This document shows, one piece after another, positions 1 through 32,000 of a DNA stretch of 32,000 nucleotides; the stretch's first letter is position 1; the number at the start of each line of letters is the position of its first letter. Below the pieces are notes generated by a model. That model searched no databases. It was not told the DNA's origin and saw nothing but the letters and a program-made list of their open reading frames with translations. The position numbers were made by a program, and so were the translations under genes. This DNA is from Candidatus Omnitrophota bacterium (lineage in GTDB: Bacteria; Omnitrophota; Gorgyraeia; Zapsychrales; JANLHA01): the NCBI GenBank assembly GCA_963662715.1, contig OY759724.1:1170001-1202000 (forward strand), read 5' to 3'.

Positions 1-3000
1 TTCTTACCAGCTCCCACAACTCCTCATCCGTGATCCCGCCCTCCGGCACATTCAACGCCTTGCGCCAGTACAACGCATTTGTTGGCTCATCATACAGGTA
101 ATCCACAACACTCCGACCTTCCGGCAGCACCAGCTGATGCGTCGGAATCCAGATATACCGACTCGCACTGCTCCGCTCATCAAACGTGAACCGCACCGAT
201 GACTGCAGCTGCAGCCCCAGCTCTTCCCTGCGGTCTTCTCCGAAACCTCTTTCTTTCAACCCGGCATCCGTATAGGTCTTCAGGCCCGGGAACGCGAACG
301 TCCAGCCCTTGTACCACCAATCCAGCGGCTTGACGTCCATCCCCAGGATATGCGGCATGATAAAATGCGTGAACTGATCGCCCGGCTGCCTGGCGATGAT
401 ATACGCCCCGAACTGGATCGGTTTGGCAAATCCTTTCACCTTGCGGCTGAACACCTCTTCGATCTCATTGAGCCGGTGCGGCCCGTTCCACGGCCGCGGC
501 GTTACCCCGCCCTCTTCGATCGGCGAAGAAGTTTCTTCCAACGGCCTTAAGTCTCTGATCAAATCAAATTCGGCTAAATACCGCAACTCCTGGTCAGTCA
601 AACGCTGTTGAGAAGAAGCGTTACGGACTTTACGAATCAAATCCTGCAGCTCAGGATTTTGCTCCCCGGTGAAAACATAAGGCACAAACCCGAAATGTTT
701 AATGTAGAACACAGCCGCCCCGGCTTGCAGGGCATCGTCAGCAAACTCTTTATGAGCTGTTTCTCCTCCGAATTGTGAATTTGAAATAACAACGCCCTCA
801 ACATCAGGATATAAAATCCGCACCGCATTCAATCTCTGTTCGAATATCTTCCTGGAGAAATAATGCCTGAACCTCGGGATGATCTTATATCCGATTGTGA
901 TCTTATCATCCAGCAATGAATGGAACGCTCCATGACCGATCATGAGCTGCTTCTCCAGCAAGAAACCTTCCGCGCAGTTCGTCAGATCATCAGTGAACCA
1001 CATGATCTGCTGAATGCCAAAATCATGAGTCGCCACACAGCACGTTCGGGTCCCTTTGGCGCTGAATCCTCCGATCCAGAATTTCTGGAGTTTGAAATAA
1101 TCTATGAACTGTTTCAGGTAGGCCTGTCTTTGCTGTTCGGAAGCAACCAAGCGAACGTTCGGGAGAGATAAGAATGCTTCTAAATCGGCTTTGACGACCT
1201 CCGGGCTCTTGTCGTCATTGACCGGGGAGCTGCTGACACTATCGTCACGGCGGGTCGCGTCTGCTGACTGATCTTTAATGATCCGGACAGTCTGGTCAAA
1301 AACAAGCTCATAGACCGGGTCAAAGCTGTGGTCCAGGTACCGGTTATAAACTGTGAGGACTTTTTCCCTCCGGGCAATTGTCACATACGCCTGAGCCGGC
1401 AAATAGCTTCTGACCAACAGCACTTTAACTGTCCATTGTTTAAGTTCTACCTGATGCTCCACCTGCGCCAGCCGCCAGTGTTTCAAATACTTCTCTGGGA
1501 AGACATCATAATATTTCTCATATCCTTCATTGAGGAAAGGCAAACACAATTGCGTCTCCCATCTTTCCAAATGCTTGCTGACCAAGCCCGTTTGCGCATC
1601 TCTGTGTCTGTACCAGCGGGCAAGCATCCTCGTCCATGTCAACAGGGTTTCCCAGAGCCGTGTGCCGATACGATTCCGGAAGACAATGATTTCATTTTGT
1701 CCGGCTTCTGGCGCGGAAGACCGGGCATGCATTTGGACTTTTACAGCCTGCTGCCGACCTATCGGGGAAGAAGTTTTATTCTGCTCTTTTCGGTCTTCAT
1801 CCGAACTCTTTAAAACTTGTTTCTGTGCCGCGTGATCATGCGTCGTCAAAAGCTTCTGTGAGTTGGGCCATAAGGCCATAAGACCCAGGATGCCGCCGAT
1901 GACGTAGGAAACAACATCCCATTTATCCGGAGTTGAAGTGATGCCCCACCACTCCAGGACGACAGAAAGAGCAACCATCCAGAAAAGCGTTGTCTTGGCA
2001 AGCCCGCTCTTTCTTTCCACAATTCTTCTTACAAGGACATCGGCATGGCTGGAAATGCGTGTCGTGACAAAACGTTTGAACCTGGCGGCGACAGTGTGCT
2101 CATCCAGCATGTTCGCGAAACTTCTCACTAACTTCAAGAGGATAGGTGTCAAGAGGACAAAAAGCGGAACGGAAACATAATCAGTGTAATGGTCGCGGAT
2201 CAACACGGCCAGCGGAGTCCCGACCTTGACGACTGTTTCCCGGAGAATATCATTATAAATATAACTCGAAAGCGAAAGCAGGGTTGATATAACAGCCGGT
2301 CTGTAATAAACAGATTCCTTAATAAATATTTTGTGTTTCAACCCATCCTCTACCGTCTTGGCGATATAGAACAGACTCATCGCGAAGATGACGCCGAATT
2401 CGCCCATCTGCAGCACAAATCCGGCCAGAAGCCCCATGATAAACAATCCTCTCGCCGGACTCACCGGGGTTTTAGGTTGAGACGAAGACTCCCCGGATTC
2501 CGGCTCTAACCTGTCTAAATAGATTATCGCCAGGGCGCCCCCGACAGCAATTATCATATAAATACCGAATAAGTAGAGAGCCTGGCCGAGATGAGATAAG
2601 ACCGGAGCAAGCGTCGGATTGATGAACGCAAAACTCGTTGCCACGAATCCCGGCATAAGCAGGCCCAGGACGGCGATAATAGAAAAGACCGTAATCTGCC
2701 GGATTTTCCGGAAAGGCTTCCTGGCGGCGGAAGCCGACGTTTCAGCAAAGGATATGCTTGCCACATCCTGCTGCTGAGCGATCCGCTGGAGAAGCTCAAC
2801 GTTAAGAATACGGTATTGTTCCTGAGAACTAAGAGCGAAGAAAGCCGGATGCAGGTAAATCGTCCTGCGCCCGACGTCAGTTCTTGCCGCATACAGCCCG
2901 TCGCCCAAAAGATCCGATCGCGCCGTTACAGTCAAGGAGAAGAAGCCGTAATCTTCAAAATCAGCCATGCCTGCGGTTTGATCCGGCGGGCCATGGGCGT

Positions 3001-6000
3001 CCTTGTGCAGTTTCACCAACGTTGCTTTTATCGTCTCAAGCCAATCTTTCCGGAAGCAGGAAGACACATCGTAAAGCTCCACCCCTTCAGGGTTCCAAAG
3101 GGCTTTGGCCTGACCGTCAGAATAATCTTCATGAGAAACCCTGCCGCCGGCAGATGCGCCTGAAACAGGTGAAGAAACATCATGGTCTTTCCCTTGCTGA
3201 TCGCCATCCCTCAGAAGCTGGGCGCGCCAGTAATGCAGGCCCATATCCCGTAACGATGTCCTCTGACGCGTTTCGTGATCAAGCACCGCTCTTAAAATAT
3301 CCTTCGGTGTCTTTTGAGGTTTTAGATAGAGAGCATTCAAATCATCCTTCTGCCCCATCTCAATGACGAGTTTATACGGACGTGTCTTCACTTCATACGG
3401 CAGCAGCAGATTCATTTCATCCACGTTGCGGGAAACATCCTTGGAATCATCGTACACATTCAGATCCGGTTGAATACGGACGAATCTCATTTTGACCAGC
3501 ACACCTTGTTTTTCCGCTTCATCCAGAACGCCCTGAACCAGCAGGAAGGCTTCTGTTTCCCTCCTCAAGGCATCGTACATATCTTCTCCCTCCTGCACTT
3601 TCATGCGGGTATCGGCAAAAGCGATAAACACAACGGCATTTGGGGCGAGTACAGACGGCAAATAATTAATATATTGCTGCACGGCTTCCTTAAATGATTT
3701 CTCTTTCAGGAAGAACGGTTTAATAAGCGTGACAAGCTGGGCCCGGAAGCCTTTCCCGATCATTTCACTCAAATCATCTTTCAGCAGAATATTAACCGGA
3801 GCCTCAGCATCCAATGTCTCGGCAGATACATGGACGCCTAACCGCTGCAGCTCATCCCGGTGATGTTCGGGGACAACATCTTCTTTATACCATTCCTGAG
3901 CTAATTCCGTGCCGATGACCGTCGAGCGCGCACGGACGTCCATTCTTTGCAGGGCCCTTCTCACCCGGAGCGGAACAGTGCCGTAACCGGTTCCGATATC
4001 GAGCGCGGTAAAACCACGCTCTGTTTCCGAACGGCCGTAAGCCTTTTTCATCACGGCATCGAAATACGTATCTTCACTCAAAACCGGAACCGCGGCATAG
4101 GCCTGCCGCTCCAGATGCCGCACAAAAACATACGGAAGCTCAAGCAGCTGGTTCATCTGCTGCAGTCCCACAAACGCTTTCCGTCTGTTTGAACTCTTAA
4201 CTTTATTGAAAAGATATTTGAGGATGGCTCCACGGACAAAGATGTAAATAACCGCAAACATGCCGCCCGTGCTTAAGACTTCACCGAACAATGTCCATGC
4301 GGGGATAGAGCTGACAAACTCGGCCAACACCGCGCCCAGCTGGTCAAAACTGAGATGAACAAAACCAGGGTAAGTCAGCCCCGTGAAAATAAACGCGGCA
4401 ATGCCTCCCAGCACCATGACCCCGAAAGCGGAGTCACGGCGGTCAAACCCCTGGAGCTGCAGAGCGATATAACCGGCTGACGCCGCAACCGACAGGCTTA
4501 CTTTGATCAATAAAGCTTTATAAGCCGACACCATGGACATCAAGGCTGTCACGAGCGGACTGAGCCATGCCCCGTGCACCAGCCAAATGTTCAGGAAGAC
4601 CCCGCCTATAATCAACCCTGCCAAAAGGAGTATAAACGGTTTCGACCATGACGTACGGAAAGATTTCACAGCAGCGGTTAAGCGGCCGTTAGCGTTAACC
4701 AGGATATGGGAAAGGATAAATGTGCCGGCGAAAAGAACACCTACAGCAGCCGGGGTCGACGGCAGAATAACGCTGCCCAATATCAGGAGCGCAAACGACA
4801 AGAATGTTATCCGTTTATTTGCAGGAGCAAAGGCCTCCCGGCCATGGAAAAGATGCCATAAAAGCTGCAGACTGAGCGACACCCCGATGAACGGCGGAGC
4901 CACGGCCAACGGGATACCAAAAGCCCAGCTTAATATCACACTGCCGCCAACCACAAATAATCCCGTTTCAATAACGGCCGGAGCCAGGACATAACCGACG
5001 AATCTCCCCCAGTGGGCTGTGATGCGTTTGTACACCCGTTCCAGCCTCGGCCAGCGGCCGCCGGTCATAGGAGAACTGCTTGCCGGCCCGTCCGTACCGG
5101 AATCGGAATCTTTTTGCAGTTGTCTTTGAGCCAGCACCATCTCTCTCGTATAAAGTTCTTTAATAACGGCGCTGTAATAATGTTTCAAGAATTGCGGAAC
5201 GTCTGTCAGATAAATAAAATTCGTTGTTTTCGTGACATAAGCCAGAATATTCTCTTCGCTCTTGGAGAACCGCGGCGGCGTCAGATTGTCCAAGCGGTCA
5301 AAGATTTTGATAATTTGTGCTATTTGGTTTTCTACCCTGTGCCCGCGGATGATTCTGCTCAAGAAGTCTTCGTCATCCTCATGAGATCTCTGTGTCAGGA
5401 TAAGAACGGTCCGGGTAATCATCCGCACGGTCTCTCGGTCTGCAAAGGCTCTCAGCCGCTTCTGTGTATCGGAAAGAAGGCGCAAAACATTGCCGCCGGC
5501 GTCTGCGTGTTCTTCAACAACATCATGCAGGAGAGTGGCCGCGATAATCACTTCAGCCGGAACACGGTTCTGCAACAAATATCTGAACAACTTCCTGTTT
5601 TGTGAAATAGCCAAGGCAATGCGGATCGGATGGGTCAAGTACGGCTCCCCGCGTTCACGCTGCATACCGTGATGGACAACATAAGCAATCCGGTAAACTT
5701 CATCAAGCAGGGCGGCATTAAACGAAATATCATACCGGTTAAGATTCTGTTTAATATCAGAGAACGTCATATCGAACCACATACGGCTGTATTCCACATT
5801 AGAATATTCGTACAGGTGAATGTTGACCGAGGGGATGCCCTGCTCCATAAACGGCGTCGTGCTGCGGAACAAGGATTCCATTTCCGGGAAGAACCGGAAC
5901 CATTTCCCGGCGGTGGTTAACAATAAAGCGCCGTCCCGCATCCAGTTAAGCATATTATTGGCAATAATGGCGGTCTGAATGGGCTTGGCCACTTCTTGCT

Positions 6001-9000
6001 GAGCTTCAATTAAATATTCATAATAGTTATAAAGGAGCAGATCAAATTTTTCACCTTGTTCCGGAGCAAAACTCTTGAAATCAGCCGGCCTGATCTTGAT
6101 AAGCTGTCTGATATTATCTCGCGCCTGAACGGTCCGGTAATTGACCGCATGGAAATATTTATTAAGCAATCTCCGGCTTTCCGAGATCATTCGTCTCGGG
6201 GTATCGAAAGTCAAGAAGACATGCCGCGGATAAAATCCCCGTTGCGCTATGTTCAACATCTCCGCATTATCGTTGACCACGGTAATTTCAAAATTATGCG
6301 GTGTCAACTGAATACCTCTAGCTTCCGCTTCTTCCATAAAGGCAATCGCAATACGATGCGCTTCCGCAACCATCGGTCGTCCGGACAGACTTCTGATACC
6401 GCCGAAACTCAGGATCCTGATCTTATCGCCCAACTCTCCCCTCTCAAACCGGTCCATAATGCGCGGAGCGAGTTTTGTCTGCAGCATTCCGAAGACCGCC
6501 CGGCTTTCACCCATGCCGTTAAATAAATAATAAGGATAATGATCCCTCTTCCTGATATTCCTGCGGACCGGCGAAGACGACTGTTCTTTGCGTGAGGCGG
6601 CCCCGCGCTGGATTGAGACCACTTGCCCTTGCGCATTCCTTTCATAAACTCTGCTGCCGTACCGGCGGTACTGAGGTGCGGGGAAGTGACGGCGCAGCAG
6701 CCGGAACTCTTCGAATTGATGCACAATACTGTTAAGGTGGAAATATCGTCCCCGCAAAGTCACCGGAGGAATATTCTCGTCCGCTGCTCTTAAAATAAAT
6801 TCATCTTTGCGCGTCCGCTCTATCGTCAGAATGACCTTCCGGGTTATCGGGGACAGGAAGACGATTGTCTCCAGCCTGCCGACGGCTTCCCTCATAACGT
6901 ATCCAACCCGCCGCTCAATGATCAGGTCGCTGGCCTTGGATACCGCAAAATATGTCTTGCCAAAACTGACGCTCCGTTTCTTACCGCCTATTTCTCCCTC
7001 TCTTCTGGTCCGTTGAATATTTGTTTCAAACTGTCTGAACGGTTTATATTCCCGCAGGTTAACGGCCTGGCGTTTTCCATTTTTATGGGTTTTCACTTTA
7101 ACCGCCGTCTGCCCCTGATACGAGACATAAATACCGTCTTTTTCCGCACGCAGGATAAGATAATTATTTTCATCCTGGACATCAATCAAGGCCAACTCAC
7201 CGGCCCGGTCATTGCGGTGGACGACAACCTGGCTTGGTTGTGACACATAAACCTCGGGCAATTGTAAAAGATGTCCGGACAGGTTGACACGCTTGCCGGT
7301 CAGCTCTCTTTTCTCGTCCGGATCTCTGAGGATATTCCTGTTCCTTTCCATCTGCCGGTCAAACTGTCTGAACGACTCATAATCCTGCAGATGTATCACT
7401 TTCCCTGATTGAGTATCGTGTGCGCTTAACACGGCTTCCTGATTTTGATACACTAAGGTGACTGTCCCGCCTTCTGCGACAAATAATAGATTATGATCTG
7501 TTTGTTTCTTATCAGCCAGCACCATCCTCGGAGTTTTCTTATGCCTGTAGACAGTCACCTTAGCGAACTTGCCTGCTTTGGGCCGGTAACTTCTTGGGAG
7601 ATTCAACTGATAACCGGCAAAATACAGCCGCAGATCAGCAATATCTCTCGCTGTCCCGCGCCGCCGGACGTCTGCGATGTAACGCTTGGCCTGAGACGAA
7701 GTGACCGGGCTGGAAACATCTTTATCGTGTTTTTCCGGCTCTGAGGCTTTTGTTCCTTGAACATCAGACTGTTCAGCCGCAAAATTTTCCTCTTCTGCCA
7801 AACGCCGGGCTCTTCGTATGATGATGCGCCGTAAAATGAGGATTCCCGCCGCAGCGGCAGCCGTGGCCGCGGAGAAGAGCCCAACGAAAACAACCGGCGA
7901 AATTCCCGGGCCTTCAGCCAAAGTCGCTTCTTTCTTCTTCATCCGTAATAAAGCTCTCCGGTTTTTACGATTTTCTCTCTCTCCTATTTCACGTTTAGCG
8001 ATTTCTTTTTCTGTCTCAACCTGCAGTTCCTTTCGCTCCCTGGCTTCCAGACGCTGGACAAAAGACTCGAGGAACCGGCTTATAGGAGCGTCAACTTCAT
8101 AGCCTCGCTCAAGGAATCTTTCCGGCAAATTCTGATGGAAGGCTCCCATTAAAACAATGGCCCGGGAGTTCGGCACAGATTTCAGGTAGGCTCCAACTTC
8201 TTTGACGATTTTCCCTTCTCTTAATTCTCTCTGTTTAATACGGGTCTTAACCGGAATTTGTCTCGTTGGGTCGCGGTTCAATTCCAGGAAGACCTCTGCA
8301 AAAGGCGGAACTTCCAGCCGCAGCTCTACTCTTCCTATATTCCTGGGATCAACCATTTTTTCAGCCATATAGCCCAGAAGCGTTTCCTGGAATGTAATAT
8401 CTGCCCGGTCTTTGTTCTCCTGCCAGTTTTGCCATTCCGCCCGCCAATCTTTCTCTTTTAATTCCGCAGCTTTTACTCTGGCATAACGCTTATACTCCGC
8501 CTCAAACGCTTTCCGGTATTTTCTGTCCTTGAGAATTCTCGGCACATCCCAGCCCGGGAAAACCTCTCTTAGCCCTATCCATGGATTAAAACGATTAAAG
8601 ATAACATCTTCCATGTATACAAGCACTTTCTGGGACCGTGTCTCTTCAAAAGCCCGATCCATATTCTCCCTTAAGGATTCGAACAACCTCATATTAATTT
8701 CCCGGTCTTCGAAGAATTTAAAACTGTGCAGCATATAAATGATGTAGATATCCGGGACCATGGCGGCGGCAAATTCTCTCTTTTCGATAAATTGTGTGTC
8801 CCTGGAGCTTATTAATAACGCCCCCAGCCCAGCGGAGAATCCGAACCTGAAGAAATAACGTCTGGACATCTCTGCCTTCCGCGGCATATCGAGAATGGCA
8901 GAGAAGGCGCTTCTCTGCTCCGTTGTTCGAGTTTCTTTCTCTTCTTTCACCGGACTGGATGAAGATGACGGACGGGCCTGTTCCGGCCAGATCGGCTGGT

Positions 9001-24000: not shown

Positions 24001-27000
24001 GCAGTTGATCAAACTTCTCTATGACAGCCGTGACAATCTCGTCGCGCACCGGGCCAAACGCCATCACTCTGCTTCGGATATTCTTGCGGATTTGTCCCTT
24101 CGTCGGCCCGAACAGGCTCAGCTGATCTTCATCCTCTTCACCCTTCGCTATCGGGCTGGAGGAACCTGAAGAAGCTTTCTGCTGCTTAATATTCTCTTTT
24201 AAGAATTCTCTTATAATTCGTCGTGTTTGCTCATAAAAGACGACATTGGCGTGCGGATTCTCTCCTTCTTTAGGTAATATGATATATTCCTCTGGATTAC
24301 CCAATCCCCGTTTAAAGCCCTCAATAAATTCTTTTAAGGCGCGACCGGGTTCCTTATTTTCCAAGTCCGGAGAATGTATATCCTCTTCGACCATAATAGT
24401 CATCTTAGGACCTAAATAATCTCTCAAGGCATCAACTGTCTTCTCGCTGTATAAGTCTCGCATCAATTCCCCGTAAGGATTGTTATCCTTCATTAAGGCA
24501 TACCGGCCGCCGGAAAAGATATTACTGAAGAATGGATAGAACGGTAATAAATCAAAGCCCCTCTGTCGGCCGGCCAGTTCGGATCCAGCCAACGGCGTAG
24601 CAATCTCGAGGAAAGAGACGCCTTTGAACAAAGAGTGTCCTCTGTCTTTGTCGGTCTTAGCCGCCAACCTGAAGATAGTCCCGCCATTGGAATGCGTGAC
24701 AACTCCCCCAAGGCGGGCCGCAGGATTTCTTAACTGAAATTCCGTCCATTTTTCCGATAATTTTTGCATATTTTCTTTTACCGGCAGGAAGTAATCATAA
24801 AGGAAGAAGGCAATATTATATTTTCTTCTGAGCTCTTTGAAAGAAAGGGCAAAGGTATTAAACGCGCCCCGGCCATTGCCGTGGATAAAGAGGATCACCG
24901 GCCTGTTATCCACGGTTTCAAGGGTGTGGATATCGGACAGCCCTTCCAAAATACGCATAATTTCCTGTGATCTCGCATCATTCTTAGGCAATGTTTCTTT
25001 TAAAATCCGGGCAATATGGCCAATGACAATATCTTTACGTTCTGAAATTTCTATGTTTATTTGATTTAAGGCATCCTCGAAACCGGAACCCGATGTCGCC
25101 TTGTTGCTATCTTTAATCGCTTTTTCTAATGCGTTCATAAGCGGTGCAATAATTCCTTCGAACCCGATTTTAATTTGGCCATTTTCTGATAACGCTTCGC
25201 CTTCTTCCTTTAATAAACCTTCATTCTTTACAAGTGTTGCGAATGCTTTCTCTGGATTCCGGGCTAATGCCATCATCGTTGCCAACGCAATGATGAATTC
25301 CCGGCGAGTTATAGTTACCGGGGAGGAACTGGAAATATCTTTTCCGACCCCGGTCTCCACCTCTTCCTTCATCATATGGACAGTTCTTTGATTCTCTCCT
25401 CTGCGCTTAGAGCTTGATGCCGGTTTCCTGGCGATGACATATTCATGCTTATCGCTACGAAACGCCACTTCTTCATCCTTAAAACCCTTCTGTTTCATGA
25501 CAGTAACGAGCTTAGCGCCCATCAACCCGGGCGCTTGTCCTTTCAAGAAATCAGTAGTTGCTTTAACTATAATTATTCCATCAGCCTGCAGCACGAAATA
25601 AGATTGCTCAATAATTTTCTCTAAAACATCAACAAAGAAGAATGGATTAATCAACTCACCCTCTCCAGCGGTGGCTAAAGCCTCACCGTATCTACTGATT
25701 CGTGCGTCCCTAAGGACATATAACAGACTGTCATTATGGACAACGACTCCCAGGGTTCCTCCGTTAAATTCAGCTGACAAATCTGTCGCGTCGCCATAGA
25801 CTTGCGTGAGCACTGCCTTCTCCTCTATGTCGACTTTCTTTTGTCGTGCAACATCCAACATGAACATCCTCTTAAGACCACCGTCTATTAAGCCTTGGGA
25901 AGGATTACGATTTGACGATGCGGCAACATCGATGCCTATCCGGCCTCCTAAATGATATCTATGCGCAAGTTTTTCATATATTGTGCGTTCCTCATTAACA
26001 ACTATCTGAACCGGGGAACTGGCCGGGTCATCATCAATTTCAGGACGATCCATCCTTGAATGCACTCTGAATGCCGTCAGCATCGCTTCCGCCTGTTCCA
26101 GCGTCGCTGCGCCGAACCGGATCGCATTGATGCCGGCCATGCCGATCTTTTCGTTTTCTAAGAGTCCGAAGAACACATCCTGGACCTCTGGAGTCATTCG
26201 GCGGGTTGCTCTGCTTAAGACATACTTCACTAACCTGCGGACGCTTTCTTCTGCCTGTTCATATCCGGTCTCCCTGGCATATCCTATCAGGAAGTCGCCC
26301 ACATAATACTGATACCGGCGGTACTGCTGGAACACCACCACGTTCACCAGCGCCTTTAACGCCAGCTCAAGAGCTCCCTTCTGCTTGCTGAAATCGTTCT
26401 CCCTAAGGAACCCGGTCACCTCTTTTATCAACTCTTCCGCTTCACTTGACCGTTCAACCTGTTGGCGGCCATACGCGCTCTCCATCCGGTATCCTTTCGA
26501 TACAAACCGATCGGCCGGAGTGAACAGGTCCATCTCAGATTCCAGGGCCGCGTCCACCCGGACCACTCTCATATCCACCCTGCCTGACTTGAACACCCGC
26601 ACATCCACGACCATCCGGGACCGGTCTTCCGTGTCGATCCGCAATCTCTTCGCCTTCGGGGCATTATGGTAAATCGCCCACACCCGTACGGCCTTCATCG
26701 CGTCAAAATCATCCTGCGGATATCTGTTCTTCAGCCAGCCCCTCATATCCTCCGTGCGGTCTAACGTCATCTCATAACCCTGCATCCAGACAGTATCAAT
26801 ATCTGCCATACGAAGGTCTTTGCCCAGCCGTGCTTTATAAGCCGCCTGCAGTTGATCAAACTTCTCTATGACAGCCGTGACAATCTCGTCACGCACCGGA
26901 CCAAACGCCATCACTCTGCTTCGGATATCCTTGCGGATTTGTCCCTTCGTCGGCCCGAACAGGCTCAGCTGATCTTCATCTTCTTCGCCCTTCGCTATCG

Positions 27001-30000
27001 GTGAGGATGTCTGATCCTTAGACGCCTCCGCCCCCAGAGAGCGGACGGCCTCTTTCACATCCAACGTCATATCACTTCCGGCCAGATCGCGGATATCGGC
27101 TGCGCTTAATGTCTCACCCTGAATAATCCTTGACCGGTAGAGTGTCATCCAGCGGCGATGAACGGTCTTATCATTAAATGTAAAACCGAACTTCAGGTAG
27201 AAAACCACGGCACCTGAATCTAATGCATAGTCATTATCAATCTGTGACCGCATCAGATGAACCTGCTTCACGTCAAAATGACTGTGGATGCTCTTAATCA
27301 GGGCAGCAAACATGTCTTTGCTCTTTTGGCCTTCATGCCGGAATTCATCAAACAAGCGGTAGACAAGATGAGCGCCGTTTCTGTCCGTGATGACCGTGCC
27401 GTAGGCCAGGACCTGATCTTTTTCAACAACAGCAAGATAATAACCGCTGTCAATCCCCAAACGAGCCAGGAAGACAACCCGCACCCCATCCATAATTGGG
27501 CCGGCATAAACCTCATATTCATTCACATCGTCTGCCTGTCCTCCGCCGATCCAGACATCTTTTGCTTCAAAGGCTTCCTGCAGCCAGGCGGCATATAAAT
27601 GAGCTTCCTGCAATGTTGCTCTAAAAAGTCGTGTGGTTTCGGTCAGCTGTCTTACTTGCGGATAAAGGAGGTGTCCCGCACGAACCGGGGAACTGGACGG
27701 CGTTCTGCCGGATTCGGAATCCGGAGTCTTCATCGGAATAATAATGTCAAACCGGGCTCCCAGGATCTTCCCTGTCTGGCCTTTAATGTTCCGTGCTGTA
27801 ATCGTGCCGTCAAAACATTCCTCAATGATCTTACGGCTCAGGTATAAGCCTAACCCGTGGGCTTCGTCTTCTGCGAAACGCCGGCTGAACCATTCCTTGA
27901 AAATCAGGTTGATCAGGTCTTCTTCGCCGGCGAACGTGGCCCTTGCCTTGTTCCAGACATTCAGTTCAACGGCCTTGCTTCTGAGAATATCCGGCTGGAA
28001 TCCCTGTCCGTTATCCCTGAAGCTGATTTTTAAATAACCGTCTTCATAGCCCATGTCCATTTTCAGCCGGACTTTTAAGAAACCGATCCCGGCATGACTG
28101 TAAGCATTGCTGATCAAATTCTTCAGCACATAGAAGAGCCCGTCCTTATAAACCGGCATAAACACCTGCGGCGTCCCGGGATGAATGACCACCTCGATAC
28201 CTCCGGTCCGCATCCAGGTCCGCCCATGGAAATCATCCAATGCCAATGTCTCCAAAAGAATACCGTTACGGACGATATCGATTCTCCTGGCGAATTCTTC
28301 AATGCTTCGAGCAAAATTCTTCTTAACCAACGCCCATGTGTCCTGATGGTCCGCTATCTCTGCGAGGTTGATGCCCTGTTGCTTTCTGTAATCCTCAATT
28401 AAGTACTCCAACCCTTCACACATTTTCTGGATACTTTTAGCTTTTATCTCTGCCTGCGGTTTTTTCAGCAAGGCCGAGAAAGCCGCAAAAATAGCGTCAA
28501 TTCTCCTGTACAGGTCCAGATAGATCCTGACCAGGGCGAGGTTGTCCTCTTGTCCTTCATAATACATATCCAGAACCTGCAGGTTGCCTAATACGGCAAA
28601 CAGCAATGAACGTAAGTCATGCGTCAAGATGCCGAAGGACAGTAAAGCTCTTTGCTGAATATTAATACCCAATGACTGTCCGGTACGGACGGCCCGTTCT
28701 ATCTGATCTTTCTTAAACAGCAATTTATAATGATCCGGCTGATCTCTTCTCAGGACCCCTCTTCTGACCAGAAGATCGAGGGCCATGTTCAGAGCTCGGG
28801 TGCTCTTGATATCCAAGAGGCCCGGGGCTCCCTGAGTTGCGGCCAAATAGATAACCGGCGTCAGCTGACCATCCTGGGCAAAGGCGTAAAGTCCGCGTGT
28901 TTCCAGAATAGTTCTTAACACTTCTTCCTCGGCATGATCTTTCCAGGCTTCCACCGGAGAACTGGCCTTTTGAACCGTTAAGACTTCGGCGTTTAATTTC
29001 GTTGAAATGTTCATGGAAGCAGAAAATCCTAGGCTTTCCAGAGCAGGAATCGCCTCTCTTGAATTCTGATAATTGTGAATCACGACGGCATCCCGATTTA
29101 AGACCGGGTTAAGGCTCTTCATGTGTTCAAGATATTCCGCCTGCTTAAGATGTTTAAGGCCCATGAAGCTCACGATGAAATCAATCTGTTCCGGAGCGAA
29201 GTAATAAGGCAAGTTTTCTGCGACATCCAGAATAAACGTAATCGACGGGTGGAGGTTCTGCCACTTGACGGCCTGGCATTCATCCCCAAAGCCGAACAAT
29301 TGAATCCTCCCGAGATCTCCTTCTTCAAGCGTTCCCTGCCTGACCTGTTCTTCCAAATCTTTGGCTATTGTGTTTACGGCCACGCCTTCCCCTGTTCCCC
29401 AGCAAACATAAGTGACCTTTCTGTCCGGCACGGCGCTTCTCTTCACCCTGCGGACCCTCTCAACGATCATCCGTACGATATCGATACCAAATTCTCTGTT
29501 GATATCCACCAGCCTTGTGTCCGTAAATATCGACCTTCTGACTTCGGTAAAGCCGTCAAGCAGACCGGTCTGGCTGTTCAAATAAACACGGCCGTTATAG
29601 AAATAATCAATGTCTTTAATCTTATCAACAGGAAGCGTGGTCAGCAGTCTCGGTCCGGCCGGGAAGAAAGTTTCTTTGATCGACATCTCTTCTGATACGG
29701 ATCTGATAACACTGCCCGGCGCCATTTTGCGTATCGGGGAGGAACTGGTCTTGGGGCCGGATGACTCTGTCGTTGTTGGGCGCTCTTTGTTTTGCGATGT
29801 TCCGGCCCGTCCGCCGATATACTGGCCGATAATCGCTAAAGATTTCTCTATTTGCCCCCGGCCCCGTTCGACAACCTCATAAGCTCTTTGTCCTAACGCA
29901 TCCGCCAGATCATCATTTTCAAATACCCGGATCAGTTCACGCCCTAACTCCGAGGTTTTCTTCAATTGAATGATCGCATCGTGAGAGATAAAATCTCCCA

Positions 30001-32000
30001 TCATATCTTCAAAGTTTTCTGTATATGGACCGACAATGACAGGTTTGGCAAAATTGGCAGGTTCCAGAGGATTGTGTCCGCCTAACGTATACCAGAAACT
30101 TCCGGCAACAACGACGACACTGGCAATGGAATAGAGGGATTTTAATTCACCATACGTATCCAGCATAATCACCTGAGGAGGTCCGCGAGGATCTATGGAA
30201 CTCAAAGCAGATTTGCGTATCGCCGGAATACCCTGCAACTCCAAATACCGCATAAATCCGTCAACATCAGCAAGATTGCGCGGAGCAAATATCAGTTTCA
30301 CATTTTCCAATCCCGGACGGATAATCAATTCTTTATAGGCCTTGACCAATTCAACTTCTTCACGTTCATGAACACTTCCGTAAACAAGAATCTTATCTGT
30401 TCGGTTTAATCCCAAATGTTTTAATAACTCTGTTCTTTCATCTTCCGATAAAGTAATCAGGGATGTGTCATATTTAATATTTCCAATAATGGAAATCCTG
30501 TCGTCTCCGACCCCTCTCTGCTGCAGGAATTCTCTTGCAAGTTCAGAAACGGCACCGAAATGATCCGTCAATTCCACGAGTTTACGGCCGTAGAACCGAT
30601 ATTTTACCCGAAGGACTTCACCAAGAGACTGGTCGTCCGACAAGAAAGAGTTGATCACGACCGTAGCCGCCCCATATTTTTCTTTGGCAATTCTAACGAA
30701 TTTAGGCCCTAACCCTATAAACGATTCCTGGACGACGACATGAACCGGCCTGATAACTCTGAACAGCCGATTAACAGCGGACTTCATATCAAAGACATAC
30801 GGAAGAACAACGATATCCTTATCAGCTAAACTCGCCATGTCTTTGACATTTTGGGTGCTGTTTGTCAGCAGGACAATACGATAATCCGGATAAGTCTGCT
30901 GCAGAGCTTCTATCAGGGATATGGAATTAATAACTTCCCCGACACCGCAGGCGGAGACCACGATGGATTTCCTGTCGTCTTTGAATGTGGCCTTAATGTC
31001 TCGCGGGATATACCCAAAGCCTGCCGGAATATCGCTCCAGTGACGATGCTGCTTGATAAGATGTCGCACAAAATTCATGCTGTACAACGGGGCAAAAAGC
31101 AGGTCTTTAACGAAGAAGGTCAGCCTTGAGTCTCTTTCAAGCCATTTGGAACCCGTAACCGATACAATAACAGCCGCACATGCACTTCTGCCGGATTTCT
31201 TAATCATCTTGTAGGAATGATACATTCCCAAACGCAGGAGGGCATAGAAAGATTTTCTTTCTTGTCCGTTATCCTTCCCCTGCTTGACCGGGCTGGAAAC
31301 CTTGTTTTCCGGAGACTTAACGCGATAGTTGTACATTTCCGGAACATCATCCTGATCAATCCTTTCAAAAGAGTATCCTTCAGCCAGCATGGAGCCCAAC
31401 AAGACACCTTGTTCACCCCGGTCTTCCAGTAATTCGTTTTCAACGTAAAAGGTCACCTCTCCGTCTATGGAGAAATTGAGATAGATATTACCGAACGCTC
31501 TGTTAACATTGCCGTACGCATCCCACATCGGCAATGTCTCGATATCAAATTTCCGGCGAATAGTGTCCGCCTGCCCTTTGGTCCACTCGACAGCCCATTC
31601 CCAGACATTCTCATCCGGGATGCCGGTCTCTTCCTGGACAGCCTTCCAAATCCTGGACTGCAAGTCGTTAATAAGCGTGACGGTCTCCATTCCGTCATAA
31701 ACGTAGCGGATCACCAGATCTTTGTTCTGTAAGGTCCGGATGACATTGACGAACTCTTCCTGATACTTGGCCGTGACACGGGCTATCCTTTGCCGGCCGG
31801 CTTCTCTGTCAATATCCGCTTCGGACGAATACACCGCTTTGAAGGCATCATGATGCCAAACATGGAAACTCAGGTTGACCTGCAAATCAAACGGCAGGGT
31901 CGCCAGCCGTTCGGCCGCCTGCTGGGCCCGGCGGTCGTTCACCCTCCAGCCGTGTGTCACCAGCCAGACATCAAAGCCCCGTTTATGAATGGCATCCACG
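1..32000 (-). CDS. Internal fragment of one giant ORF (10,666 complete codons, plus-strand 31999 down to 2; start and stop both outside the window) encoding a modular multi-enzyme, membrane-spanning megaprotein
   Basis: I checked the whole frame whose codons occupy plus-strand positions 3k+2..3k+4: positions 29,700 down to 1 were translated 60-nt line by line, and 32,000-29,700 was translated in bulk plus scanned codon by codon. No TAA/TAG/TGA occurs anywhere (no tta/cta/tca at those plus positions). The product is protein-like throughout and carries many canonical enzyme motifs (listed below). None of the 16 minus-strand ORFs in the supplied track is in this frame (their low coordinates are 1 or 0 mod 3), which is consistent with this frame never closing inside the window. 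Random expectation for 10,666 stop-free codons is about (61/64)^10666, effectively zero. Confidence 0.95.
14..498 (-). repeat. Dispersed direct repeat, copy 1 (partner 19670-20154); the module continues beyond the window edge
   Basis: Same alignment as above. Preceded by ETSSPIEEGGVTPRPWNGPH (SSPI at 518-529), parallel to GSSPLEERETSPRPWNGPH in copy 2. Confidence 0.9.
530..1219 (-). other. Uncharacterised module (230 aa)
   Basis: NDDKSPEVVKADLEAFLSLPNVRLVASEQQRQAYLKQFIDYFKLQKFWIGGFSAKGTRTCCVATHDFGIQQIMWFTDDLTNCAEGFLLEKQLMIGHGAFHSLLDD... lies between SSPV (1220) and SSPI (518). Confidence 0.4.
1232..1759 (-). other. Uncharacterised module (176 aa)
   Basis: GRQQAVKVQMHARSSAPEAGQNEIIVFRNRIGTRLWETLLTWTRMLARWYRHRDAQTGLVSKHLERWETQLCLPFLNEGYEKYYDVFPEKYLKHWRLAQ... 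lies between SSPI (1760) and SSPV (1220). Confidence 0.4.
1865..2695 (-). other. Second polytopic membrane block (about 6 predicted TM helices) in module 1772-3163, after a soluble N-terminal region of about 150 aa
   Basis: ITVFSIIAVLGLLMPGFVATSFAF, ALYLFGIYMIIAVGGALAIIYL, GLFIMGLLAGFVLQMGEFGVIFAMSLFYI, VSVPLFVLLTPILLKLV, TLFWMVALSVVLEWWGI, VVSYVIGGILGLMALWP. Confidence 0.65.
3176..4150 (-). other. Class I SAM-dependent methyltransferase-like domain fused C-terminally to the membrane block (same module, 3176-5065)
   Basis: Motif I is GFTALDIGTGYGTVPLRV (about 3975-4015), followed by VIGTELAQEW and NAVVFIAFAD. Confidence 0.5.
4208..5002 (-). other. Polytopic membrane block (about 8 predicted TM helices)
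   Basis: Successive hydrophobic stretches of about 20 aa: FVGYVLAPAVIETGLFVVGGSVILSWAF, IPLAVAPPFIGVSLSLQLLW, ITFLSFALLILGSVILP, AAVGVLFAGTFILSHILV, PFILLLAGLIIGGVFLNIWLV, LSPLVTALMSMVSAYKALLI, FGVMVLGGIAAFIFTGL, GGMFAVIYIFVRGAILKYLF. Confidence 0.7.
5078..6565 (-). other. Two-domain module: N-terminal Rossmann/CheR-like methyltransferase-like region (weak) plus C-terminal RelA/SpoT-type HD ((p)ppGpp hydrolase-like) domain
   Basis: HD part at 5282-5674: VVHHGMQRERGEPYLTHPIRIALAI, AATLLHDVVEEHAD and IIKIFDRLDNL match the SpoT/Mesh1 hydrolase motifs (H-x-G-x-x-R-x-x-G-x-P-Y-x-x-H-P, LLHD-x-x-E-D, DRL-x-N). No synthetase domain follows. The N-terminal part (IRILSFGG... VVNDNAEMLNIAQRGFYPRHV) is only loosely CheR-like. 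Confidence 0.65.
6578..7702 (-). other. Module (375 aa) containing two tandem domains of about 110 aa with a shared Y-x-x-F-R-Q-F-[DE] ending
   Basis: ...GKVIHLQDYESFRQFDRQ (YESFRQF = 7361-7381) and ...RQAVNLREYKPFRQFETN (YKPFRQF = 7028-7048) lie 333 nt apart. Each is preceded by beta-strand-like alternating sequence. Confidence 0.45.
7832..7903 (-). other. Single predicted transmembrane helix followed by a strongly basic stop-transfer cluster
   Basis: ISPVVFVGLFSAATAAAAAGILIL is followed by RRIIIRRARR (down to about 7800). It lies at the C-terminal end of module 7715-8947. Confidence 0.6.
8804..8869 (-). other. Twin-arginine (Tat) signal-peptide-like segment located internally, about 25 aa after an SSPV junction
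   Basis: M-SRRYFFR-FGFSAGLGALLISS. S-R-R-x-F-F-R fits the Tat consensus [ST]-R-R-x-F-L-K and is followed by an uncharged h-region of about 13 residues (Met codon 8867-8869). Confidence 0.45.
8960..10969 (-). other. Large uncharacterised module (670 aa)
   Basis: There is a Rossmann-like stretch (GKPVIATIGYSRAAVWQLQKML ... VDCVIVHVHTFETWSPESFAALLRDRLAEEDSILILSH), then long helical/coiled segments and an acidic Pro/Glu-rich stretch (PETTEVVPTVEPAQMPEQDREGQPED). No family recognised. Confidence 0.4.
10982..11698 (-). other. Uncharacterised module (239 aa)
   Basis: SEEDNVRGLISDAELFVRAAVPGTIEQVEGKYLRVIKAGADMIIFPTRKDIIHGTWLRDRQIGIGAVNLGRPV... lies between SSPV (11699) and SSPV (10970). No motif recognised. 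Confidence 0.4.
11711..13354 (-). other. Heptosyltransferase-like (GT9, GT-B fold) module
   Basis: N-terminal VKRVLILSPTKRDYGVELIESGVMNILAVHPNIEEVTVVTHPN. C-terminal signature LEGLNKLINSADVVVTPDTYTMHAATAMGKIVVTPWG (12323-12415), which matches the ADP-heptose:LPS heptosyltransferase motif L-I-x-x-A-D-L-V-V-T-x-D-[ST]-G-x-M-H-L-A-A-A-x-G as I recall it. Confidence 0.55.
13910..14476 (-). other. Uncharacterised module (189 aa) with an LYHGT motif (possible ADP-ribosyltransferase/Tpt1-like fold, very tentative)
   Basis: VSEEKDLVLYHGTLAGLVRTWLAGDG (LYHGT = 14438-14452). The H-G-T is reminiscent of H-Y-E class ART/KptA enzymes. No further motif verified. Confidence 0.2.
14573..17326 (-). other. 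Large module (918 aa) with a GT-A-fold glycosyltransferase core (GT2/GT81-like) and a helical C-terminal extension of about 450 aa
   Basis: DLDVVVTVPFYSEGDTIDNVLEAI (Asp 16841-16843). VRGKGFSLHLGLGVMEDLGRKNGLFATYDADLRSIQPGWVRDHLWPL with a DxD motif (D-A-D = 15977-15985). This resembles glucosyl-3-phosphoglycerate-synthase-type GT-A enzymes from memory. Confidence 0.5.
17339..18175 (-). other. HD-domain metal-dependent phosphohydrolase module
   Basis: SLQIAAMGHDIERYL (H...HD), SHPLNSARIVDKLLEQLG, AFLIRHHDAGVH and LRVLSDADSAAFF (distal Asp), in the order typical of the HD superfamily. Confidence 0.6.
18458..18994 (-). other. Uncharacterised module (179 aa)
   Basis: ERRIRKADVLQELVAEKAIRTAKDLAYYGDAIGLSAKAQSIIAAYIRLKKEGINVTVPRLAQLSALTVAEVSEVSEG... 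lies between SSPV (18995) and SSPI (18446). Apparently helical. No motif recognised. Confidence 0.4.
19007..20173 (-). other. Uncharacterised module of about 389 aa; its N-terminal part of about 165 aa is duplicated at the start of the window
   Basis: EERETSPRPWNGPHRLNEIEEVFSRKVKGFAKSIQFGAYIIAKKKGDQFTHFIMPHILGMDVKPLDWWYKGWTFAFPGLKTYTDAGLKERGFGEERREELGLQLQSSVRFTFDERSSASRYIWIPTHQLVLPEGRSVVDYLYDEPTNALYWRKALNVPEGGITDEELW... No family recognised. Confidence 0.5.
19670..20154 (-). repeat. Dispersed direct repeat, copy 2 (partner 14-498)
   Basis: About 485 nt aligns with 14-498 at a constant offset of 19,656 nt (6,552 codons, in frame). I counted roughly 15 mismatches by eye, clustered around 20026-20046, for about 97 percent identity. 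The + strand track ORFs 350-550 and 20006-20257 begin with the same MRHDKMREL... shadow. Confidence 0.9.
20186..20419 (-). other. Low-complexity basic/acidic linker segment (78 aa)
   Basis: KKVERKVEPIHPIVKSENNRRPQQDQKSSRKKTKAGSEEKLTDTVTISEEARRLLEKEEGQTSAESQGQIERGSEESG lies between SSPV (20420) and SSPL (20174). Confidence 0.6.
20432..20920 (-). repeat. In-frame tandem repeat, 96-bp (32-aa) unit, 5 copies decaying toward the C-terminal side
   Basis: Unit is SSPVGASTMMSSTPLTQEEYTAWKQAQAAEEV. SSPV blocks at 20813, 20717 and 20621 are 96 nt apart. The first copy starts with degenerate QLPV (20909-20920). The last two copies are 33 and 34 aa and diverged (SSNV at 20522-20533). Confidence 0.9.
21311..21865 (-). 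other. Uncharacterised module (185 aa)
   Basis: EAKWDTEILMDQLRTVDSLSEVLPVAWGEQITAEDIIRVYKEIKGTEIENTLIVRLLWHIVNATVGVG... lies between SSPI (21866) and SSPV (21299). No motif recognised. Confidence 0.4.
21915..22480 (-). repeat. In-frame tandem repeat, 213-bp (71-aa) unit, about 2.65 copies
   Basis: Unit is SSPVAGAGTNNERVKGQGTYTVAAVLLKGETGDAVAAGRSSGVREERSELSERIAGNRTKTTDLLSEAGEV. SSPV blocks at 22451, 22238 and 22025 are exactly 213 nt apart. The two full copies differ at about 3 nt. The + strand track ORFs 22005-22193 and 22218-22406 are near-identical shadows. Confidence 0.9.
22463..23170 (-). other. GHKL/HATPase_c-like ATP-binding module (anti-sigma-factor/serine-kinase-like, tentative)
   Basis: FRYINQNIAQHGSGFG (N-box-like), IHVIVLDQGKGFIN (D-x-G-x-G) and GGNFGHGLTLTVENAENISIET (G-box-like). 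No H-box precedes it. Confidence 0.4.
23183..24148 (-). repeat. Copy B of the duplicated module of about 322 aa, function unknown (paralogue of 26021-26995)
   Basis: Starts AKGEEDEDQLSLFGPTKGQIRKNIRSRVMAFGPVRDEIVTAVIEKFDQLQAAYKARLGKDLRMA and ends HSRMDLPEGPS-SSPI. Offset to copy A is 2,847 nt (949 codons, in frame). Confidence 0.85.
24161..25315 (-). other. Alpha/beta-hydrolase (serine hydrolase) module
   Basis: RPVILFIHGNGRGAFN (oxyanion HG region, His 24881-24883) and the nucleophile elbow GGVVTHSNGGTIF (Ser codon 24689-24691). A later EGENPHANVFYE could supply the catalytic His. Confidence 0.6.
25328..26008 (-). other. Class I methyltransferase-like module (tentative)
   Basis: RIGIDVAASSNRNPSQGLIDGGLKRMFMLDVARQ, VYGDATDLSAEFNGGTLGVVVHNDSLLYV and SYFVLQADGIIIVKA resemble Rossmann-type methyltransferase motifs I, II and post-II. 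About 227 aa. Confidence 0.35.
26021..26995 (-). repeat. Copy A of a duplicated module of about 325 aa, function unknown (paralogue of 23183-24148)
   Basis: Starts AKGEEDEDQLSLFGPTKGQIRKDIRSRVMAFGPVRDEIVTAVIEKFDQLQAAYKARLGKDLRMA and ends HSRMDRPEIDDDPA-SSPV. By-eye protein identity to copy B is roughly 75-80 percent. The + strand track ORFs 26385-26672 and 23538-23825 are near-identical antisense shadows of the two copies. Confidence 0.85.
27008..27682 (-). other. GNAT-like N-acetyltransferase module (tentative)
   Basis: About 225 aa. YLAVVEKDQVLAYGTVITDRNGAHLVYRLFDEFRHEGQKSKDMFAALIKSI ... GAVVFYLKFGFTF resembles the GNAT core and its C-terminal FY-x-K-x-GF motif. Match is from memory only. 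Confidence 0.4.
27695..28951 (-). other. Histidine kinase module (HisKA H-box plus HATPase_c) with a soluble N-terminal region of about 100 aa; no transmembrane sensor and no receiver domain
   Basis: H-box FGILTHDLRSLLFAVLGNL (His codon 28619-28621). N-box GLFYVLKNLISNAYSH. D-box KISFRDNGQGFQPD. G-box EAHGLGLYLSRKIIEECFDGTITARN. All in canonical order. Confidence 0.85.
28964..29731 (-). other. Class I SAM-dependent methyltransferase-like module
   Basis: VTYVCWGTGEGVAVNTIAKDL (glycine-rich motif I-like), then ITFILDVAENLPYYFAPEQIDFIVSFMGLKHL and LNRDAVVIHNY. About 256 aa between two SSP motifs. Confidence 0.45.
29744..31285 (-). other. Kdo transferase-like module (3-deoxy-D-manno-octulosonic acid transferase, GT30, WaaA/KdtA-like)
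   Basis: Contains KSIVVSACGVGEVINSISLIEALQQTYPDYRIVLL (SACGV at about 30941-30958), ILVYGSVHEREEVELVKAY, KLIFAPRNLADVDGF, VIMLDTYGELKSLYSIASVVVVAGSF and GGHNPLEPANFAKPVIVGPYTENFEDM (GGHNPLE = 30062-30082). Order and spacing match the GT30 family as I remember it. Bounded by SSPV (31286) and SSPI (29732). Confidence 0.8.
31298..32000 (-). other. Module truncated by the window edge, function unknown
   Basis: Translation begins VDAIHKRGFDVWLVTHGWRVNDRRAQQAAERLATLPFDLQVNLSFHVWHHDAF and ends at ENKV-SSPV (31286-31297). I recognise no family motif. Confidence 0.4.

Follow-up and report, generated by a model that had tools for sequence, protein, structure and literature searches.

Giant proteins of the Omnitrophota, the 'Archaeovorins', carry glycosyltransferases, methyltransferases and hydrolases, according to the preprint that describes them (West-Roberts et al., 2023, bioRxiv 10.1101/2023.11.21.568195). 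Cleavage by C39 or S8 peptidase domains is raised there as a speculation, and unknown cleavage points prevented the proteins from being split. A second preprint, whose data set includes 5,761 Omnitrophota proteins of at least 10,000 residues, has a 'multi-enzyme metabolic cluster' class with a recurring set of methyltransferase, HATPase_c, GNAT, HAD and HD modules, and downgrades signal-peptide calls on chunks other than the first as chunking artefacts (bioRxiv 10.64898/2026.06.07.730766). Term searches of both preprints returned no mention of a linker, a delimiter motif or a cleavage site. The locus compared with these proteins here is a stretch of 32,000 nucleotides from Candidatus Omnitrophota bacterium (contig OY759724.1, positions 1,170,001 to 1,202,000), referred to throughout as the window, which is crossed by a single giant open reading frame (ORF). 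The best explanation of the window is a 32-kb stretch from the interior of a multi-enzyme giant gene of the Omnitrophota type.

The ORF is punctuated by a short peptide, SSP[V/I/L/M], and an architecture of cassettes delimited by this motif is close to certain. It is proposed with a probability of roughly 40% that the giant gene is translated once and cut at [S/V]SSP[V/I] to give several dozen products, comprising ordinary enzymes as well as membrane and exported proteins, with new genes added by the splicing of cassettes in frame. Literature searches for the motif (SSPV) or for 'polyprotein' together with Omnitrophota found no paper, and a limonene-enrichment paper holds no data on processing.

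The giant reading frame and its delimiter motif

Stop codons counted per frame over the whole window number 260-591 in each of five frames and zero in the sixth, minus-strand frame 2, in which codon 1 lies at 31999-31997:

1-32000, minus strand: internal segment of one giant ORF, 10,666 codons, stop-free, with both ends cut by the window

Closed ORFs in the window reach at most 197 amino acids (aa) under the bacterial code (table 11); the giant ORF is missing from a list of closed ORFs because its frame runs off the window ends. An initial annotation had placed the fused modules at 1772-31285, which is exactly the span of modules M1-M37 as numbered below. The strand is minus, and the ORF is open at both window edges and extends beyond both of these limits. 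Ratios of nonsynonymous to synonymous substitution rates (dN/dS) of 0.11-0.35 for orthologs and for both pairs of paralogs indicate purifying selection on the modules. Together with the architecture shared by the relatives, this indicates that the sequence is real, selected coding DNA and neither an artefact nor a decaying fusion, as the initial annotation had argued in setting aside decayed pseudogene fusions. The giant ORF is almost certainly real coding sequence.

Four relatives were available for comparison. A search among 5.8 billion proteins returned P0001-P0003 only, all of them partial ORFs that span their whole contigs in Omnitrophota/Omnitrophica metagenome-assembled genomes (MAGs), and a genome scan found one locus (L001), a 13.5-kb genome contig labelled 'uncultured Planctomycetales'. 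Metagenome-contig scans with alignments of M0 and M30, a viral-contig scan and a protein search with the middle third of the ORF found no relatives. L001 consists wholly of ORF once a 100-N scaffold gap (1030-1129) is allowed for. It was considered as the 5′ end of a giant gene and rejected: the gap interrupts a duplicated M21-like module and alters the apparent reading frame, and the ORF is open at the beginning of the contig. This gap also illustrates how internal paralogs break the assembly of giant genes.

The motif SSP[VILM] occurs 40 times in the 10,666-aa ORF, against 0.38 occurrences expected from composition. With tandem repeats and paralogs removed, no tetrapeptide is more over-represented than SSPV (18 observed vs 0.096 expected, 187-fold). 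The preceding residue is S, V or T at 34 of the 40 sites, giving the consensus [S/V/T]-S-S-P-[V/I/L], and the motif is flanked on each side by approximately 10-15 polar residues. Its serines are encoded by all six Ser codons, from both the TCN and the AGY families, its proline by CCG, CCT or CCC, and its last position alternates between V, I and L, whose codons differ at the first base. This codon variety points to conservation of the peptide and not of the DNA, and the motif very probably acts at the peptide level.

The same punctuation is found in all four relatives, at a density of 2.2-3.3 motifs per 1,000 residues, and the top-enriched tetrapeptide in each of them is SSPV or the overlapping SSSP. 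Three unrelated long proteins with an M7 domain (P0032, P0022 and P0015) lack such a delimiter.

The motif divides the ORF into 41 segments that range from 11 to 922 aa. Modules were numbered M0-M40 from cuts at the motif, so that each module starts with it; M0 and M40 are cut by the window. The modules were compared with Pfam and NCBIfam profile hidden Markov models (HMMs), with sequences in the PDB and with each other. A hydropathy scan, which is a heuristic and not a trained predictor, found approximately 13 transmembrane (TM)-like segments in the ORF, clustered in M33, M36 and M37.

31298-31999, minus strand: M0, radical-SAM-like, C-terminal 234 aa; ends at VSSPV (aa 235-238 = 31297-31286)
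29744-31297, minus strand: M1, 518 aa, complete Kdo transferase (WaaA-like); starts SSPV; matches NF004388, Glycos_transf_N and 2xci
28964-29743, minus strand: M2, 260 aa, possible methyltransferase, a label left unsupported by Methyltransf_25 at E 0.0038, below cutoff; no NCBIfam match
27695-28963, minus strand: M3, 423 aa, cytoplasmic histidine kinase (DHp + CA); HATPase_c 2.6e-13
27008-27694, minus strand: M4, 229 aa, orphan; no Pfam, NCBIfam or PDB match; weak similarity to M39
26021-27007, minus strand: M5, 329 aa, orphan, paralog of M8 (81% identity over 323 aa; dN/dS 0.28)
25328-26020, minus strand: M6, 231 aa, orphan; no matches in HMM or PDB searches
24161-25327, minus strand: M7, 389 aa, complete alpha/beta-hydrolase precursor; SSPV, then a twin-arginine translocation (Tat)-like signal, TRREFIIALATMMALA...AFA, then the catalytic domain
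23183-24160, minus strand: M8, 326 aa, paralog of M5 by internal comparison
22463-23182, minus strand: M9, 240 aa, orphan with a faint GHKL-ATPase-like signal (HtpG model alone, E 0.0096)
21878-22462, minus strand: M10-M12, three tandem units (71, 71 and 53 aa), each starting SSPV; Tandem Repeats Finder (TRF) period 213 nucleotides (nt), 98% matches
21311-21877, minus strand: M13, 189 aa, orphan; absent in L001 between its M10-like and M14-like modules
20825-21310, minus strand: M14, 162 aa, orphan; homolog in L001, 49% identity over 86 aa
20432-20824, minus strand: M15-M19, tandem repeats of approximately 32 aa, each with the motif; TRF period 96 nt; one unit decayed to SSNV
20186-20431, minus strand: M20, 82 aa, basic low-complexity spacer (sequence scan)
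19007-20185, minus strand: M21, 393 aa, conserved orphan with a second copy, M40 (93% identity), also in L001 (31% identity to the L001 module)
18188-19006, minus strand: M22 (183 aa) and M23 (90 aa), orphans; the M23 tail is conserved in L001 up to the motif
17339-18187, minus strand: M24, 283 aa, HD-domain-like; DUF4202 6e-6 and HD 9e-4, both below curated cutoffs; GHD and HHD readable
14573-17338, minus strand: M25, 922 aa, the largest orphan; no family match, a DxD-like YDAD being the sole glycosyltransferase hint
13367-14572, minus strand: M26-M29 (28, 193, 37 and 144 aa), a run of short modules and spacers, of which M29 has a conserved counterpart in P0003
11711-13366, minus strand: M30, 552 aa, GT9 (heptosyltransferase)-like with a C-terminal extension; Glyco_transf_9 1e-6, partial; RfaF 2e-4
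10982-11710, minus strand: M31, 243 aa, orphan; its slot holds an unrelated 1,173-aa module in P0003
8960-10981, minus strand: M32, 674 aa, orphan; 40% identity in P0003, beginning at the motif
7715-8959, minus strand: M33, 415 aa, with a Tat-like signal, SRRYFFRFGFSAGLGALLISS, 33 aa after the motif and a C-terminal TM helix (hydropathy/signal scan)
6578-7714, minus strand: M34, 379 aa, orphan; no family match
5078-6577, minus strand: M35, 500 aa, an N-terminal region that matches no family and a RelA/SpoT-type HD hydrolase domain (TIGR00691 7.6e-9)
3176-5077, minus strand: M36, 634 aa, multi-pass membrane region (about 8 TM-like segments) and a C-terminal LDIGTGYG, an S-adenosylmethionine (SAM)-binding-like motif (TM scan, sequence reading)
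1772-3175, minus strand: M37, 468 aa, orphan with about 4 TM-like segments (TM scan)
530-1771, minus strand: M38 (180 aa) and M39 (234 aa), orphans by internal and HMM comparison
2-529, minus strand: M40, first 176 aa of the second M21-family copy, cut by the window end; 93% identity to M21, dN/dS 0.34

Module sizes of 514, 418, 385, 548 and 279 aa given in the initial annotation are the inter-motif distances minus the four-residue motif. The two tandem peptide arrays lie at 21917-22481 (71 aa x 2.7) and 20559-20914 (32 aa x 3.7), with one SSPV per unit, and repeats homologous to M10-M12 are present in L001. If the motif is a cleavage site, both arrays would yield many copies of short peptides, as multi-copy peptide precursors do. 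M27 (13910-14488) begins ...DLVLYHGTLAG, which resembles by eye the hYHGT at the start of some ADP-ribosyltransferase or phosphotransferase folds; searches gave no support for a family assignment.

The plus strand carries all nine listed ORFs of at least 150 aa (table 11), for example 1328-1813, 5012-5605 and 29123-29695. These are taken to be antisense shadows of the giant ORF rather than genes. GC skew on the plus strand is negative in each 1-kb window. Cysteine is very scarce in the giant ORF (13 of 10,666 residues, 0.12%); its fraction is 0.15% in P0003 and 0.5-0.8% in L001, P0001 and P0002. Rfam and tRNA scans of the window gave no matches, and none of its modules is a phylogenetic marker.

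Modules as cassettes and as proteins

Comparison with the relatives shows that homology between the giant proteins begins and ends at the motif. M0 is 59-62% identical to P0001, P0002 and L001, with homology that stops at the motif, and it is followed by four different modules in the four proteins. Similarly, the conserved M23 tail precedes the HD-like module in the window and a module with a Tat signal in L001. M30 aligns with a P0003 module from motif to motif at 58% identity, and the conserved M30 and M32 are separated by a module of 243 aa in the window and by an unrelated one of 1,173 aa (precomputed Pfam match PF02896) in P0003. L001 holds M21-, M0-, M10- and M14-like modules in a changed order, and its M21-like module aligns with M21 from motif to motif at 31% identity. 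Within the window, the similarity of the paralogs M5/M8 (81%) and M21/M40 (93%) begins at residue 1 of the motif, and the linkers that precede it are unrelated. Of 21 informative homology ends in total, 18 fall no more than 12 residues from a motif, where 9.2% would be expected to do so (binomial P ~2e-16, for ends that are not fully independent). These breaks at the motif indicate that modules have been duplicated, swapped and reordered as cassettes.

Modules also recur outside proteins with this delimiter. The unrelated protein P0032 (4,957 aa) has an M7-like hydrolase domain after an internal MARRIFLGLAAGAGALAAL segment and an M36-like membrane region, and has no SSP[V/I]; part of it is 33% identical to the N-terminal region of M36. 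Giant-protein lineages with different junctions or none thus have such modules in common.

Two modules can be compared with free-standing proteins over their full extent. M1 residues 68-494 match positions 14-421 of the 425 positions in the Kdo-transferase equivalog NF004388 (E 4.5e-54, below the curated cutoff and so divergent). The module also matches Pfam Glycos_transf_N (3e-19) and the PDB entry 2xci, Aquifex WaaA. M7 was searched exhaustively against 1.84 billion representative proteins, and its best matches include free-standing proteins of 389, 397, 377 and 406 aa, onto which its residues 1-389 project at 2-391, 4-392, -2-381 and -11-379, respectively. These homologs start with Sec, lipoprotein or Tat signals, and the Tat-like signal of M7 is in the same place. 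Ser213, Asp316 and His359 of M7 and its HG oxyanion motif are all present, and are invariant or nearly so among homologs. The AlphaFold2 model of M7 (mean predicted local distance difference test, pLDDT, 83.5) comprises a signal-like helix at residues 8-23, a low-confidence linker and a compact domain at 56-387 that matches esterases and lipases in Foldseek searches; the motif is unstructured in this model. M1 and M7 are co-extensive with free-standing proteins and retain their catalytic residues, and the other modules are consistent with the same pattern. The idea that complete proteins are joined in frame by a common linker is thus borne out by these two modules, by the cassettes bounded by the motif and by purifying selection, and the labels Kdo transferase (at full length) and alpha/beta hydrolase (on homologs, the invariant triad, the confident model and Foldseek) hold.

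Two further labels are upheld by searches. M3 matches HATPase_c (2.6e-13), histidine-kinase equivalog models and CheA structures, and its H box (THDLRSLL) and N, G1 and G2 boxes are readable. M35 matches TIGR00691 (7.6e-9) over residues 295-433 and Rel/SpoT structures (2e-5), in agreement with a SpoT-type HD domain. At the positions of HDTLED and DRLHN in the aligned Rel/SpoT structure, M35 has HDVVEE and DRLDN, and its hydrolase activity may be altered.

Other labels are supported in part or not at all. The GT9-like label of M30 is backed by a partial profile match (173-231 of 247, 1e-6; RfaF 2e-4) and lacks a full-length one, and the HD hydrolase label of M24 is backed by DUF4202 and HD matches that both lie below curated cutoffs. 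HMM and PDB sequence searches gave no support for calling M2 and M6 methyltransferases or M4 an acetyltransferase. PDB sequence searches with M24, M30, M6 and M4 were uninformative. In its full-length form, the M0 homolog spans 432 aa between successive motifs and shows CxxxCxxC together with a weak Radical_SAM match. M21 was considered as a possible processing enzyme, and its structure prediction was of low confidence (pLDDT 34). Approximately 30 of the 41 modules match no known family in Pfam and NCBIfam HMM searches; the statement that catalytic motifs are intact stands where testable and has been judged for a minority of modules.

The enzyme families that tile the chain include a Kdo transferase, a GT9-like protein, HATPase_c, two HD-type domains, an alpha/beta hydrolase and a radical-SAM-like protein. 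The initial annotation called the families functionally unrelated. This is overstated: Kdo transferases and GT9 heptosyltransferases are both enzymes of the lipopolysaccharide inner-core type, and the mix of HATPase_c, HD and glycosyltransferase domains, with methyltransferase and GNAT on the unverified labels of the initial annotation, matches the content that recurs in Omnitrophota giant proteins.

The role of the motif

At least 37 cassettes make up the gene, and a lineage-specific pentapeptide, [S/V/T]-S-S-P-[V/I/L], within a short polar linker connects them in frame. Each cassette is sized like an independent protein, and where testable is of full extent. Whole cassettes are duplicated, inserted, exchanged and moved to new positions, and the motif is where they break. 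In the mechanism proposed as most likely, the gene would be translated as a polyprotein, and the motif would be the recognition site of a dedicated endopeptidase encoded outside the window. Cleavage would then free the individual enzymes, and some of the freed products would leave the cytoplasm or enter the membrane by means of the Tat-like signals and TM segments located right behind the motif. A peptide conserved over five positions where modules meet has the appearance of a protease recognition site, which favours cleavage. That the motif is a proteolytic processing site is put forward tentatively, with a chance somewhat short of even, and processing into about 35 separate proteins is plausible.

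The position of export signals relative to the motif also bears on this proposal. Exactly two Tat-like signals are found in the 10,666 aa, 8 and 33 residues behind a motif, in M7 (TRREFIIALATMMALARNPEKAFA) and M33 (SRRYFFRFGFSAGLGALLISS), respectively. Both have an S/T-R-R-x-F-L-K-type motif, an h-region and an AxA-like c-region. As encoded, they are internal (aa 2232 and 7713), and they would become N-terminal only after separation at the motif. A third Tat-like signal, with the canonical TRREFLK (TRREFLKYVIQGGIGITVMS), lies directly behind SSSPI in L001, and the stand-alone M7 homolog P0012 has TRRCFLQQSALFVVGTALAG at its N-terminus. M33 combines its Tat-like signal with a single C-terminal TM helix and, behind it, the Arg-rich RRIIIRRARR, an arrangement that resembles tail-anchored Tat substrates and also fits an internal membrane hairpin.

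Several observations weigh against cleavage or limit its generality. Pfam and NCBIfam searches found no protease domain in the 10,666 residues of this internal piece, and a regex screen for HExxH, GDSGG, S8, S26 and ClpP-like signatures found none in the window. Among the junctions of L001, two have degenerate motifs (SSSSAV and VLSPV) and one has no motif, which indicates that the motif is not indispensable at every junction. Some inter-motif pieces are just 11-37 aa long and would be odd cleavage products unless they are spacers. The generality of the motif architecture rests on four relatives. Furthermore, signal- or Tat-like segments are internal, ahead of an M7-type domain, in four proteins of approximately 840-1,280 aa (P0004, P0011, P0013 and P0018), where they may act as internal membrane anchors that do not need a free N-terminus. 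Because similar internal segments occur in these shorter homologs, the Tat-like signals behind the motif are suggestive of cleavage and not decisive. The same four proteins also have a hydrophobic, signal-like N-terminal start and a conserved N-domain, and they may be small-scale fusions of two proteins of the same kind.

The strongest alternative is that the product remains a single, uncut multi-enzyme chain in which SSP[V/I] serves as a hinge or linker, as a site of post-translational modification (Ser phosphorylation or O-glycosylation) or as a docking site, and in which hydrophobic segments behind some motifs are internal membrane anchors. The missing protease, the junctions in L001 that dispense with the motif and the internal signal-like segments of the shorter multi-domain homologs all agree with such a scaffold, as does M33, whose signal-like segment and C-terminal TM helix are self-consistent as an internal hairpin. 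Published work also takes such proteins as single membrane-associated chains and leaves cleavage open. However, a pure linker needs no invariant S-S-P core with restricted flanks, and this core is kept in orthologs of 59-61% identity and in homologs of 31-34% identity while the adjacent linker residues diverge. Elsewhere, members of the M7 family are exported as stand-alone enzymes that carry their signal at the N-terminus, and the M7 h-region, at approximately 12-16 residues, is short for a stable TM helix. The hydropathy scan shows no TM-like segment between the M7 signal and M33. Use of the M7 signal in an uncut chain would therefore place approximately 5,400 residues of ATP-, SAM- and nucleoside diphosphate-sugar-dependent enzyme types outside the cytoplasm. 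An uncut scaffold is less likely than cleavage.

A second alternative treats the motif as the footprint of a recombination or insertion process that shuffles cassettes at the DNA level and gives it no role in the protein. The coincidence of homology breakpoints with the motif, where cassettes are duplicated, replaced and reordered, would be expected from such a scar. The DNA of the motif is not conserved, however: Ser is drawn from six codons in two unlinked families, Pro from three codons, and the first base of the V/I/L codon varies, and on this codon diversity the motif was rejected as a DNA-level repeat or recombination site. Twelve degenerate nucleotides are also too few for homologous recombination, and retention of the motif across diverged orthologs points to selection on the peptide. 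A DNA scar is very improbable.

Separation could instead take place during translation, through internal initiation (an operon without stops) or through a 2A-like skip of the peptide bond at S-S-P-V. Either would also explain complete proteins with N-terminal signals right behind the motif, and nascent motifs that contain Pro can perturb peptidyl transfer, as in 2A NPGP and polyproline stalling. Internal initiation at the junctions was rejected, as in-frame start codons near motifs are not enriched (117 vs 130.5 expected), nor are starts preceded by Shine-Dalgarno-like sites (16 vs 17.4), and at 8 junctions the interval from -30 to +20 codons lacks any candidate start. SSPV is unlike D(V/I)ExNPGP, and 2A-like skipping is not known to occur on bacterial ribosomes. 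This explanation is more improbable still.

Finally, a stop-free frame produced by assembly or polishing error, or by pseudogene fusion, has no positive support beyond the demonstration in L001 that scaffolding over duplicated modules can add gaps and frame shifts, and is effectively excluded by the absence of stops in 10,666 codons (impossible by chance at approximately 3/64 per codon), by dN/dS of 0.1-0.35 with catalytic residues intact where testable, and by four independently assembled relatives that share the architecture and are equally stop-free and motif-punctuated.

Comparison with known systems

With the Omnitrophota giant genes, the locus shares a stop-free ORF of more than 10,000 codons, nearest relatives among Omnitrophota MAG proteins, and many divergent enzyme families (glycosyltransferases, HATPase_c and HD) together with TM segments, with no single repeat dominating. 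It differs in that a defined pentapeptide marks the boundaries and that evolution proceeds cassette by cassette at this motif. Full-length Omnitrophota giant genes have N-terminal C39/S8 peptidase and SecA-like domains, none of which lies inside this internal window, which like all four relatives stops short of the gene termini.

Multi-enzyme chains such as the nonribosomal peptide synthetase and polyketide synthase megasynthases and the eukaryotic AROM, CAD and FAS also carry many catalytic units joined by flexible linkers. Carrier, condensation and ketosynthase domains are absent from the window, and its modules follow no single pathway logic. These megasynthases and eukaryotic proteins have no invariant junction peptide, and their modules lack export signals of their own.

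Viral polyproteins of picornaviruses and potyviruses, with their 3C/NIa-type proteases, share with the locus one ORF, many complete proteins, a short junction peptide and some spacers. Here, however, the gene is cellular and at least 10 times longer, the window holds no protease in cis, the modules are shuffled far more freely, and cleavage is only proposed. In the MARTX toxins of Vibrio and its relatives, enzyme cassettes are exchanged by recombination and released by cleavage in the linkers between domains. The locus is likewise a large bacterial protein with an array of independent, recombining enzyme cassettes. Pfam and NCBIfam searches of the window detected neither RTX or glycine-rich repeats nor a cysteine protease domain (CPD), and it has only 13 Cys. 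In addition, its cassettes look like housekeeping, envelope and signalling proteins and not toxin effectors, and its motif is unlike the Leu-(Ala/Ser/Gly) sites of the CPD. The closest working analogy would be a viral polyprotein or a MARTX toxin, although the locus belongs to neither class by the features compared.

Multi-enzyme giant genes in Omnitrophota are already known; what appears to be new is the delimiter motif, the cassette-wise evolution at this motif and the export signals behind it. The architecture reveals the way in which such genes expand and diversify, through duplication, exchange and rearrangement of whole cassettes. The motif also provides a rule for splitting the giant proteins of at least this lineage into units that can be folded, annotated and expressed singly. 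Whether giant Omnitrophota proteins of 10,000 to more than 100,000 residues act as a single chain or are cut is a question that it makes directly testable. If they are cut at the motif, this system would be a cellular counterpart of viral polyprotein expression, and the motif would be the first cleavage map for the giant proteins of the Omnitrophota.

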